Assembly (NCBI GenBank): GCA_963748935.1
Contig: CAVVLA010000002.1
Location: forward strand, 14,113 to 78,112
Source: Terriglobia bacterium
Lineage (GTDB): Bacteria > Acidobacteriota > Terriglobia > Terriglobales > Acidobacteriaceae
Direction: 5' to 3'
Length of the DNA: 64,000 nt
In this document: in pieces, positions 7,450 through 48,732 of the stretch
Position numbering within the stretch: the stretch's first letter is position 1
How the letters are laid out: every line of letters starts with the position of its first letter
The notes under the pieces: generated by a model
The model's database searches: none
Told to the model about the DNA's origin: nothing
The model's input: the letters and a program-made list of their open reading frames with translations, nothing else
Translations under genes and position numbers: made by a program

Positions 7450-7646
7450 CTGTCATCCTGAGCGGAGTAAACCGATTCGGAACGAATCGGTTTACGCAGT
7501 CGAAGGACCCCTACCTGTGCAAGAACGTCTCAAGGGATTTTGTATGCAGTTGCGCGGCTGCACGCAGCAGATCAGAGGAAAGGGATCCTTCGACTCCGTG
7601 GTTGCTTTCGTAAACGAAAGCAAATACTGCGCTCAGGATGACAGGG
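7450..7646. mobile_element. 197-bp MITE-like element: two inverted family-A units (CTGTCATCCTGAGCG head, hairpin, AGTCGAAGGA tail)
   Basis: Left unit 7450-7516 has a 13-bp perfect hairpin (7467-7495). Right unit 7582-7646 is inverted, with a 9-bp hairpin (7602-7623). Extra half-head GTCATCCT at 7433-7440. Confidence 0.7.
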
Positions 7647-10451: not shown

Positions 10452-10500
10452 GAAGCCAAAGCAGATTCCTTACCGGCTGACGCCGGTTCGGAATTACAAG
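10452..10500 (-). repeat. degenerate family-B unit (reverse orientation)
   Basis: GCAGATTCCTTACCGGCTGACGCCGGTTCGGAATTAC. Same design as 10955-11000, with point differences. Confidence 0.75.
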
Positions 10501-10584
10501 GGATTGGAGAAGGGTTTCGGCTTTGCAGGGCGCTGGTCACGACGTCTCGTGACGGCTGACCTTGTATTTCTACAAACTCTCGCT

Positions 10585-11000
10585 CATTGTCATTCCGAAC
10601 CGTCCGCAGGCGTGCGAAGCGCGCCGAGGGCGAGAGAGGAATCTGCTGTGCGGCGGGAAAAGCGATACTACGTTTACATTCTCGCCAGCAAGAGCCGCAT
10701 TCTGTATGTCGGCGTGACCGGCTCCCTCATGAGTAGAATGCTGCAGCACAAGTCCGGAGAGTGCGAAGGATTCACTCAGAAATACAAGGTGAGTCGCCTG
10801 GTCTACTACGAGGTTTTCCAGTACGTGAACAACGCTATCGCGCGAGAGACCGAGATTAAGAAATGGCGCCGAGAAAAGAAGGTGCTGCTGATCGAGGAAG
10901 ACAATCCGACCTGGGAAGATCTTGCTGGGGACTGGGGAAAACTAGTGCTTATTAAAAAAGCAGATTCCTCACCGGCTAACGCCGGTTCGGAATGACAATG
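10585..11000 (+). mobile_element. candidate miniature element: GIY-YIG nuclease gene bracketed by 18-nt perfect terminal inverted repeats
   Basis: CATTGTCATTCCGAACCG at 10585-10602 and its exact reverse complement at 10983-11000. Inner GAGGAATCTGC (10636-10646) is mirrored by GCAGATTCCTC (10960-10970). Confidence 0.6.
10648..10995 (+). CDS. GIY-YIG nuclease family protein (UPF0213-like)
   Basis: YYVYILASKSRILYVGVTGSLMSRMLQHKSG...AIARETEIKKWRREKK. GTG 10648 abuts the left repeat unit, and the stop TGA lies inside the right terminal repeat. The 186 upstream codons of ORF 10090-10995 were rejected. Confidence 0.85.
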   Translation: MRREKRYYVYILASKSRILYVGVTGSLMSRMLQHKSGECEGFTQKYKVSRLVYYEVFQYVNNAIARETEIKKWRREKKVLLIEEDNPTWEDLAGDWGKLVLIKKADSSPANAGSE

Positions 11001-11040
11001 CGTTGAAAAGGGTTCTCTAGAAGGGCGGCCTTTTCATGGC

Positions 11041-11063
11041 CGGGTCTCCGACCCGTCCCCACA
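11041..11063. repeat. REP-like hairpin CGGGTC-TCC-GACCCG plus TCCCCACAC tail
   Basis: Short hairpin with the CCCCACAC tail shared with 22252-22280. Confidence 0.6.
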
Positions 11064-11147
11064 CGGGCGCCACACATTGGCGTTGCTGGTGCTATCATTG
11101 CAACCACCGCCACCCTATGTTAGCGTCAACAAACAGCAGAGGTTAGC

Positions 11148-16270: not shown

Positions 16271-16312
16271 GAAGCAGCTTCTAGCTGCTAGCTTCTGGCT
16301 GCTAGCTGCGGA
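16271..16312. repeat. CTAGC-word low-complexity repeat (GCTTCTAGCTGCTAGCTTCTGGCTGCTAGCTGC)
   Basis: Starts directly after the rseP stop. Related arrays at 21958-21992 and 35701-35791. Confidence 0.8.
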
Positions 16313-16322
16313 ACCAAAAAAC

Positions 16323-16376
16323 CTGTCATCCCGACCGGAGCGAAGTGGAGCGAGCGAAGTGGAGGGACCTGCTGTT
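16323..16376 (+). repeat. family-A/B-type unit, third subtype (CTGTCATCCCGACC ... GGAGGGACCTGCTGTT)
   Basis: Head and tail match the GTCATYCYGAVC / GARGRAYCTGCT design. The core carries the direct repeat AGCGAAGTGGAG twice. Confidence 0.7.
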
Positions 16377-22196: not shown

Positions 22197-22235
22197 AGCA
22201 GATTCCTCGCCGGATGGCGGCTCGGAATGACAAAG
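22197..22235 (-). repeat. family-B unit, solo copy
   Basis: AGCAGATTCCTCGCCGGATGGCGGCTCGGAATGACAAAG has the same head/hairpin/tail as the units flanking the GIY-YIG gene. Confidence 0.75.
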
Positions 22236-22251
22236 TTTTCGGGGTGCTGGA

Positions 22252-22280
22252 GGGACGGGATGAACCCGTCCCCACACACA
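22252..22280. repeat. REP-like hairpin GGGACGGG-ATGAA-CCCGTCCC plus CACACACAC tail
   Basis: Perfect 8-bp stem seen directly. Confidence 0.7.
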
Positions 22281-48477: not shown

Positions 48478-48536
48478 GGTACGGACTAAGCATCGTGCAA
48501 CGATCAGCACGAAAAGACCCTGTCATCCATAGAGCC

Positions 48537-48732
48537 CTGTCATCCTGAGCGGAGTGGCTGCTTCGCGCAGCAAAGCAGCTGCGCAGTCGAAGGATCTCTA
48601 TATAACCGAGCATTCGCGCCGCGTGGCACCGCTGAGAACTGTGGAATGCCCAGAGAGCTGCGGTAAGGTAGGGGTCCTTCGACTCTATATCTGCTTCGCG
48701 CAGCGAAGCAGATATTCCGCTCAGGATGACAG
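48537..48732. mobile_element. 196-bp MITE-like element: two inverted family-A units
   Basis: Left unit 48537-48598. Right unit 48666-48732 is inverted, with a 12-bp perfect hairpin (48687-48715). Half-head TGTCATCC at 48521-48528. Same size and layout as 7450-7646. Confidence 0.7.

Follow-up and report, generated by a model that had tools for sequence, protein, structure and literature searches.

A gene for a small GIY-YIG nuclease, enclosed by inverted hairpin repeats, was analysed in a stretch of 64,000 nucleotides (nt) of contig CAVVLA010000002.1 from a Terriglobia bacterium (Acidobacteriota; assembly GCA_963748935.1). This whole stretch of 64 kilobases (kb) is referred to as the window. 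Judged by homology and by the layout of the locus, the open reading frame (ORF) at 10648-10995 very probably encodes a Terriglobia member of the Ssn nuclease family (cd10448-type), with the hairpin units as its cognate SRM repeats, the acidobacterial counterpart of the NTS/dRS3 repeats of Neisseria, and with gene and units together forming a resident host module. An earlier note on this DNA had regarded the system as undescribed. This does not hold, as it corresponds to the Ssn/SRM system of Chenal et al. (Nat Commun 2025; PMC11893778).

Identification of the nuclease

The ORF runs over 115 codons from a GTG start at 10648 to a TGA stop at 10993-10995, inside ...GGAATGACA. The Pfam GIY-YIG domain (PF01541) was matched at residues 7-77 of the 115-residue protein with E=4e-13, and no second domain beyond PF01541 was found in Pfam or NCBIfam. 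Public assemblies hold a gene call for the identical protein of 115 residues, on contigs with the same neighbours, an M20 peptidase gene and uppS. Within the 64-kb window the gene is present in one copy, and no second GIY-YIG gene was found there.

The Ssn family was defined by Chenal et al. (PMC11893778) as CDD cd10448, a group of single-domain, site-specific endonucleases of single-stranded DNA (ssDNA). SsnA of N. meningitidis (94 residues) binds NTS as ssDNA only and on one strand only, and cuts a few nucleotides upstream of it; double-stranded DNA (dsDNA) is not cleaved, and RNA is neither bound nor cut. Mutation of Y6, Y17 or E64 abolishes nuclease activity. The 3 nt located 5' of the palindrome are determinants for cutting, and the C located 3' of it for binding. 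An SRM lies near 71% of the Ssn homologues, and 42% have an SRM on both sides. The order NTS-ssnA-NTS was already likened there to an insertion sequence and to the REP/RAYT systems, which pair repetitive extragenic palindromes (REP) with a transposase. In Neisseria, SsnA restricts incoming transforming ssDNA that carries the repeat (PMC11893778).

A BLASTP comparison of the window protein with the 94-residue SsnA orthologue of N. gonorrhoeae gave 48% identity over 88 residues. Family membership was set at E<1e-10 for homology to N. meningitidis SsnA (PMC11893778); the value obtained here against the gonococcal orthologue was E=3e-27, and tblastn gave E=2e-17. Residues Y10, Y20 and E67 of the window protein aligned with Y6, Y17 and E64 of SsnA. 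In an alignment of 24 homologues Y20 was invariant, and E67 was kept in at least 90%. UPF0213 structures were matched much more weakly (profile E=7e-7), the closest solved ones being BH0048 and EF2693.

A plasmid collection, in which some entries are mislabelled chromosomes, was searched with tblastn. Homologues with 40-55% identity were found in Planktothrix, Aeromonas, Azospirillum, Sinorhizobium, Neisseria, Novosphingobium and Spirosoma, and the gene-plus-repeat layout recurred in Azospirillum, Neisseria, Spirosoma and Planktothrix. The flanking inverted hairpin units were CCGTCATCCCCGCGAAGGCGGGGATCC in Azospirillum, TTTGTCATCCCGAGGAACGAGGGATC in Spirosoma and CGTCATTCCCGCGCAGGCGGGAATCTAG in Neisseria gonorrhoeae. 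The gonococcal SsnA orthologue is itself bracketed by canonical NTS repeats, and the Neisseria repeat contains the classical dRS3. The identification as Ssn was reached through these flanking repeats, since the recognition of dRS3 in the Neisseria repeat led to PMC11893778. Literature searches pairing GIY-YIG with repeats of the REP or RAYT type, with miniature inverted-repeat transposable elements (MITEs) or with Acidobacteria, or carrying the repeat sequence, returned nothing relevant.

In the plasmid p1 of Planktothrix agardhii (L161, 1250-1948), the cyanobacterial homologue lies between an MmeI-type restriction-modification gene and the DISARM gene drmA. The inverted repeat around it is of another kind, AGTGAAACGAAGAATCTCT / AGAGATCCTTCATTTCGCT, and is present in several copies.

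Repeat units at the nuclease gene

The sequences CATTGTCATTCCGAACCG (10585-10602) and CGGTTCGGAATGACAATG (10983-11000) are perfect reverse complements with 380 nt between them, and the inner pair GAGGAATCTGCT (10636-10647) and AGCAGATTCCTC (10959-10970) is likewise a perfect inverted match. Repeat comparison bore out both pairs as described in the earlier note, which had also been right about the GIY-YIG reading frame and its TGA within the right repeat. The hairpins it had named for the left and right ends (Table 1) both folded as claimed, each of them inside an ATTCC/GGAAT helix according to fold prediction. For the 3' unit, DNA folding gave -10.0 to -10.6 kcal/mol (z -3.0 to -3.4). The 18-mer, searched for with a tolerance of three mismatches, occurred four times in the window versus 0.10 expected, and none of 100 shuffled sequences reached four; TGTCATYCYGA with at most one mismatch was matched 13 times versus 3.7 expected.

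The 3' unit encodes the last ~12 codons and the TGA stop of the ORF. This repeat-encoded tail reads ADSS..SE* in most homologues and lies in other reading frames in some of them, as seen in the protein alignment. Conservation is therefore at the DNA level, and the unit merely provides the stop codon. At the other end of the gene, the GAGGA tail of the 5' unit precedes the GTG by 7 nt and may act as a ribosome-binding site. The orthologue of the 5' unit was kept in four syntenic loci of other species (L001-L004). The third unit at 10458-10501 was 82% identical to the 3' unit and its flank over 61 nt, and was found at the equivalent place in L001, L003 and L004.

Table 1. Features of the nuclease locus and further repeat units in the window
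Feature	Position	Strand	Remarks
ssn homologue, single-domain GIY-YIG nuclease	10648..10995	+	ORF, Pfam PF01541, SsnA alignment, dN/dS
5' SRM-type unit	10585..10647	+	(CAT)TGTCAT-TCC-GA-(long centre with GGCGTGC-GAA-GCGCGCC hairpin)-GA-GGA-ATCTGCT
3' SRM-type unit	10959..11000	-	overlaps the ORF end; ATTCC/GGAAT helix, 2x2 internal loop, ACCGGC-TAAC-GCCGGT hairpin
Third unit, degenerate head TGTAAT for TGTCAT	10458..10501	-	upstream of the cassette; oriented like the 3' unit; fold z -3.2
Spacer between third unit and 5' unit	10502..10584	+	palindrome GTCACGA-CGTC-TCGTGAC (10536-10553) and promoter-like hexamers
Solo unit, ATTCC/GGAAT subtype	22197..22235	-	18 nt before the start of a minus-strand ORF
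Solo unit, ATCCC/GGGAC subtype	16323..16376	+	intergenic; centre is a duplicated GAGCGAAGTGGA, no clean hairpin
Doublet 1, left unit, ATCCT/AGGAC subtype	7450..7510	+	13-bp central hairpin
Doublet 1, right unit	7582..7646	-	doublet intergenic, upstream of htrA-like ORF
Doublet 2, left unit, ATCCT/AGGAT subtype	48537..48597	+	
Doublet 2, right unit	48671..48732	-	spacer and centres unrelated to doublet 1

Conservation of the units in Terriglobia

For the homologue set, one genome per species was scanned. Of 174 confirmed matches, the best 80 make up the set (L001-L080); they came from 78 assemblies of Terriglobia and were 56-83% identical to the window protein. An upstream unit within ~200 nt was present in 69 of these 80 loci, an inverted unit at or over the stop codon in 76, and both in 66.

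Written with GTCAT first, the unit reads (T)TGTC-ATTCC-GA-centre-GA-GGAAT-C-TGCT. ATTCC pairs with GGAAT, the two GA form a 2x2 internal loop, and the centre is a hairpin of its own. The 80 loci and the window were searched with a pattern anchored solely on the inner helix and the GA/GA loop, leaving the flanks unconstrained, which yielded 329 units. In these, TGTC on the 5' side was present in 98-99% and the C after the palindrome in 98%, the base before this C varying between T and C. The conserved flanks are the positions that were found critical for cutting and binding in SsnA (PMC11893778). With them, a single domain, SsnA homology, aligned catalytic residues, oriented flanking hairpins and conserved determinants are all found in the sequence.

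The proximal helix co-varied (TTCC/GGAA, TCCC/GGGA, TCCT/AGGA, TGGT/ACCA, TTTC/GAAA). Among 301 units there were 188 distinct centres, 6-70 nt in length, and their stems averaged 3.85 base pairs (bp) by outside-in pairing versus 1.46 bp in shuffled centres. Since so many different centres still form stems, the distal hairpin is conserved structurally and not by sequence; the unit is a fixed recognition stem with asymmetric flanks, to which a distal hairpin is added as structure. The commonest centres were GNA mini-hairpins of the GCGAAGC and CCGAAGG types, and tandem G.A loops were present as well; both are hallmark stable DNA structures. The unit subtype tracked the protein clade, with ATTCC in the relatives of the window, ATCCC in L068-L080 and ATGGT in L077. 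The claim of the earlier note that nuclease gene and units belong together is borne out by this co-variation of the helix with the protein clade and by the order unit-gene-inverted unit in 66 loci.

Alignment of 37 units with MAFFT and RNAalifold recovered just the invariant 4-bp helix, as centres of variable length misalign; direct pair counting was used instead. No Rfam family matched the units, whether the thresholds were gathering or permissive ones. That the two units flanking a gene evolve in concert was considered as a rule and rejected: their centres are exact reverse complements in L005, L007 and L015 and consistently different elsewhere, including the window.

Upstream block

In many of the loci L001-L080, and in differing contexts, a conserved block lies directly upstream of the 5' unit, within the 85 nt preceding it (window 10520-10590). 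It reads TTTTGCACAG-N8-10-TGTGAC-N4-5-TGAYMCTGCAA-N17-TAAAnT and stands outside the inverted repeats, yet accompanies the gene. In the window the hexamers are TTGTAT (10562-10567) and, after 17 nt, CATTGT (10585-10590). The conserved hexamers and their spacing across loci suggest a putative promoter with a palindromic operator. A strict sigma-70 promoter and terminator scan of the window called nothing on the plus strand, including this block. SOS control through a LexA-type box in the upstream TGT..ACA palindromes was considered and dropped because the spacing is inconsistent across loci.

Further repeats in the window

The other units listed in the earlier note, namely the degenerate one, the two solo units and the two doublets, were all present; together with the 5' and 3' units of the gene they amount to 9 units in 64 kb. 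Comparison of the copies within the window revealed centres that change from unit to unit. What the two inverted doublets have in common is confined to the unit heads and tails, and their centres and spacers are different. The unrelated spacers of the doublets measure 71-73 nt, an arrangement that resembles the neisserial NIMEs or the enterobacterial BIMEs more than copies of one MITE. The helix subtype of the doublets (ATCCT/AGGAT) is without a cognate ssn gene in the window. A partial head, CTGTCATCCA, lies near doublet 2 at 48520-48529, and near-tandem repeats of the GCTAGCT(T/G)C type (cttctagctgctagcttctggctgctagctgc) at 16275-16312 directly precede the solo unit at 16323.

A hairpin repeat of a second kind, GG(G)ACGGGTC-loop-GACCCGTCCCCACAC, was found at 11036-11066 and 22250-22280, 25-45 nt downstream of two SRM units. 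It may represent a separate REP-like family. The same repeat occurs at 2245-2265 and 2384-2412 of L081, a metagenomic relative, in a spacer between the M20 peptidase gene and uppS that is 'empty' with respect to the nuclease cassette.

Genomic context and residence

The context of the window locus was common only to L001-L004, and the other 75 loci were distributed over at least 10 further contexts, every one of them shared by the members of a clade. Comparison with the four syntenic orthologues gave dN/dS values of 0.03-0.12, about 0.05 overall, at dS 0.4-2.1, with synonymous sites near saturation. Over the span that separates the window from these orthologues, the flanking units remained ~90% identical.

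In ~20 of the 80 loci a small PD-(D/E)XK gene (Pfam PDDEXK_5, PF11645, E=1e-15 to 1e-18) adjoins ssn (L005, L008, L011, L013, L016-L018, L020, L023, L032, L039, L042, L044, L049, L053, L056-L058, L063 and L064). Its side and orientation relative to ssn vary, and in L011 the PDDEXK_5 ORF, too, ends in a repeat unit. No PDDEXK_5 gene was found within the 64-kb window.

Gains, losses and rearrangements of the cassette were seen at several loci. In L081 the proteins encoded on both sides are 91-93% identical, and the spacer between the M20 peptidase gene and uppS is without the gene and its units; it is filled by other hairpins and not cleanly empty. L001 has a second cassette from which the gene is deleted, and L031 a tandem duplicate. 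In plasmid AZO_p3 of Azospirillum lipoferum 4B (L162, 1367-1983), ssn and four flanking SRM repeats lie inside the sufB-sufC junction. Congeners with 95-96% identity have an empty junction; taken together, the Azospirillum records in which this copy is missing are 90-96% identical and include A. ramasamyi, A. oryzae and Azospirillum sp. B510 (L167 and L168 were compared). At the junction, ~45 nt of the original spacer are replaced. No target-site duplication was detected beside the inverted repeats of the window, in L081 or at the Azospirillum junction, and a clean empty site was not found at either of the two polymorphic sites.

On balance, these observations favour a gene that has long been resident and under selection, with occasional gain, loss or rearrangement, and do not favour a currently proliferating element. 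Evidence for current mobility at the window locus is weak.

Comparison with known systems

The Terriglobia pair agrees with Ssn/SsnA and NTS-SRM in the single GIY-YIG domain with ~95 core residues, in oriented hairpin repeats on both sides of the gene with more copies dispersed in intergenic DNA, and in the repeat itself, in which GTCAT forms the 5' flank of an ATTCC(C)/(G)GGAAT palindrome that is followed by a C. The host differs, being an acidobacterium of the Terriglobia. NTS is one continuous 7-bp helix. The Terriglobia unit is bipartite: a GA/GA loop separates its proximal helix of 5 bp from a distal helix that is free in sequence and length. The ORF runs into the 3' unit and takes its stop from it; the Neisseria unit follows the stop with GTCAT first on the coding strand, and the corresponding unit here is inverted.

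In REP/RAYT systems and their mosaic elements (BIMEs), a single-copy nuclease gene likewise lies between inverted hairpin repeats, further repeats are scattered in intergenic DNA as solo copies or inverted doublets, the gene is inherited vertically, and the repeat type co-varies with the enzyme clade. The RAYT enzyme is, however, an HUH/Y1 transposase of the IS200/IS605 type that acts through a covalent intermediate, and the enzyme here is a hydrolytic GIY-YIG nuclease. For this reason the peel-and-paste chemistry of IS200/IS605 cannot be assumed, and the likeness is one of layout, not of membership. With dRS3 (ATTCCC-N8-GGGAAT) the units share the palindrome family of the ATTCC..GGAAT core, and the window doublets around unrelated spacers resemble NIMEs; the phylum is another one, the window centres are longer and more variable, and the density in the window, 9 units in 64 kb, is much lower.

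GIY-YIG homing endonucleases of the I-TevI type have the same kind of catalytic domain and occur as small genes between conserved genes, comparable to the sufB-sufC case in Azospirillum. The window protein is unlike them in that it has no separate DNA-binding domain and no intron or intein context, the characterised Ssn relatives cut ssDNA and not dsDNA, and the site is kept on both sides of the gene and is not disrupted by it. MITEs and insertion sequences also have terminal inverted repeats around a small gene, or gene-less forms with inverted ends ~180-200 bp apart, but the window units are without target-site duplications, the copies within the window are not identical, the interiors of the doublets are unrelated, and there is no transposase fold.

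Proposed mode of action

By analogy with SsnA, the protein would bind a unit solely when it is single-stranded and folded, on the strand reading TGTCAT...GGAATC. It would recognise the proximal ATTCC/GGAAT helix together with the GTC that adjoins this helix on the 5' side and the C on the 3' side, and would hydrolyse the bound strand at a point a few nucleotides 5' of the unit. The cuts predicted at the cassette fall just beyond its two ends, on opposite strands. The gene would thereby lie between two inverted copies of its own site, an arrangement found for about 40% of Ssn genes, with more copies dispersed in intergenic DNA singly or as inverted doublets. In this lineage the pair behaves as a long-resident, selected host module comparable to REP/RAYT, not as an element that is jumping at present, and would mark sites at which ssDNA from replication, repair, recombination or uptake is cut.

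Several points weigh against the assignment to Ssn and against this mode of action. The published SRM search sequence, HGTCWYN(0-2)YYVSBRHN(0-5)WNVSBRGN(0-2)RNCYNB, which was built from 29 genomes (PMC11893778), had 0 matches in the window and matched in 3 of the 80 loci; the NTS and Azospirillum repeats do match it. The architecture of the Terriglobia units departs from that of NTS in the short proximal helix, the GA/GA loop and the free distal helix. It is the inserted loop and the second, free helix that let the published motif miss these units. The motif is treated here as a search device that assumes one continuous helix and not as a definition, and the Terriglobia units accordingly as a divergent SRM variant. 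In loci of the Sulfotelmatobacter-like clade (among L026-L064), 94 units read ATTCC...GGAAC with GTCAT first; the proximal helix systematically has A.C as its outermost pair on this strand and G.T on the complement, an asymmetry that fits recognition of one strand slightly awkwardly. An AlphaFold2 model based on the 24-sequence alignment was poor (pLDDT 57.7). The restriction of transforming ssDNA, as in Neisseria, presupposes natural competence. The sequences show the homology, the matching catalytic residues, the retained layout and hairpin and flank determinants, and the purifying selection; that the acidobacterial enzyme cuts ssDNA specifically, on which strand and where it does so, and to what biological end are what we infer by homology.

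Alternative explanations

On a reading that builds on the earlier note, the 416-bp cassette would be an autonomous, currently mobile selfish element, similar to an insertion sequence or a homing gene, whose nuclease mobilises itself together with unit-only, MITE-like derivatives. Part of this stands: the cassette is present or absent between related species (missing from the L081 spacer despite the high identity of the flanking proteins, and inserted at sufB-sufC of A. lipoferum 4B where congeners are empty), homologues occupy at least 10 genomic contexts, a gene-less derivative exists in L001 and a tandem duplicate in L031, and the layout itself has been called IS-like (PMC11893778). Against it, there is one copy in the 64-kb window, and the 80 loci kept as the best of 174 matches come from 78 assemblies. 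Synteny of the locus extends to species whose synonymous sites are near saturation, and the gene is under strong purifying selection. The spacer is replaced and not precisely interrupted in both polymorphic cases, and target-site duplications are missing. The 18-nt repeats could not be demonstrated to be transposon ends, as the promoter-like block beyond them travels with the gene. Unit centres that differ within one genome and doublets with unrelated spacers, sharing head and tail only, are not copies of one element and are not expected from recent copy-and-paste; moreover, a hydrolytic GIY-YIG nuclease acting on ssDNA only (PMC11893778) has no known strand-transfer activity. A currently mobile selfish element is therefore considered unlikely; as an ancestral state it keeps some probability, backed by the sufB-sufC insertion. 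A related possibility, to which we likewise give little credence, is that Terriglobia cassettes still move by an undescribed route dependent on hydrolytic ssDNA cleavage, for example break-induced copying between units, with solo units and doublets as landing sites. It draws on the bipartite unit with its fixed recognition stem and freely evolving distal hairpin, the gain and loss between species, the gene-less and tandem cassettes, and the PDDEXK_5 neighbour in about a quarter of the 80 loci.

Like many REP elements, the units could also work mainly as 5' and 3' stem-loops in mRNA, by which the transcript is stabilised, the ribosome-binding site masked or transcription terminated, with the link to the nuclease being secondary. 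The promoter-like hexamers with their conserved 17-nt spacing would start a transcript at the head of the 5' unit, the helix would make the GAGGA before the GTG inaccessible, a similar place before a start codon is taken by the solo unit at 22197-22235, and some units have UUCG loops on one strand. Set against these, RNA is neither bound nor cut by SsnA (PMC11893778), the hairpins are not followed by a T-tract and no terminator was called in the scan, Rfam gave no match, the commonest centres are DNA-type GNA mini-hairpins and tandem G.A loops, and the single-stranded flanks TGTC and C-TGCT are strictly conserved, which indicates recognition by a protein beyond mere stability. A primary function in RNA is accordingly rated as very improbable. 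An ordinary structure-specific repair nuclease of the UPF0213/YhbQ/Slx1-like kind, next to which the repeats lie by accident, is hardly credible at all, even though UPF0213 proteins are the closest solved structures and a 2006 survey of GIY-YIG proteins placed standalone minimal domains with Slx1: the layout is kept in 66 of 80 loci and recurs across phyla, identity to SsnA is 48% versus a weak profile match to UPF0213, and the unit subtype co-varies with the protein clade.

Significance

The assignment to the Ssn family leaves the picture of what an Ssn system is unchanged. It extends a nuclease family characterised only in 2025 to a soil phylum, the Acidobacteriota, and to a repeat variant of distinct structure. 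Of modest interest as new local features are the two-part hairpin that escapes the published SRM motif, the stop codon supplied by a unit, the frequent PDDEXK_5 neighbour in relatives, the conserved upstream block and the strong long-term constraint. Surveys with the published SRM pattern will under-count Ssn-repeat pairs, as the repeats of this phylum are missed. The Ssn family is under development as a toolkit for site-specific ssDNA cleavage, and the bipartite unit suggests that recognition needs just the short proximal stem and the flanks, which is relevant to the design of substrates. The locus also bears on whether Ssn cassettes are domesticated or still mobile, as purifying selection and long synteny are found here together with gain and loss between species. 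If cassettes of this kind were still moving, they would constitute a transposase-free mobile system.

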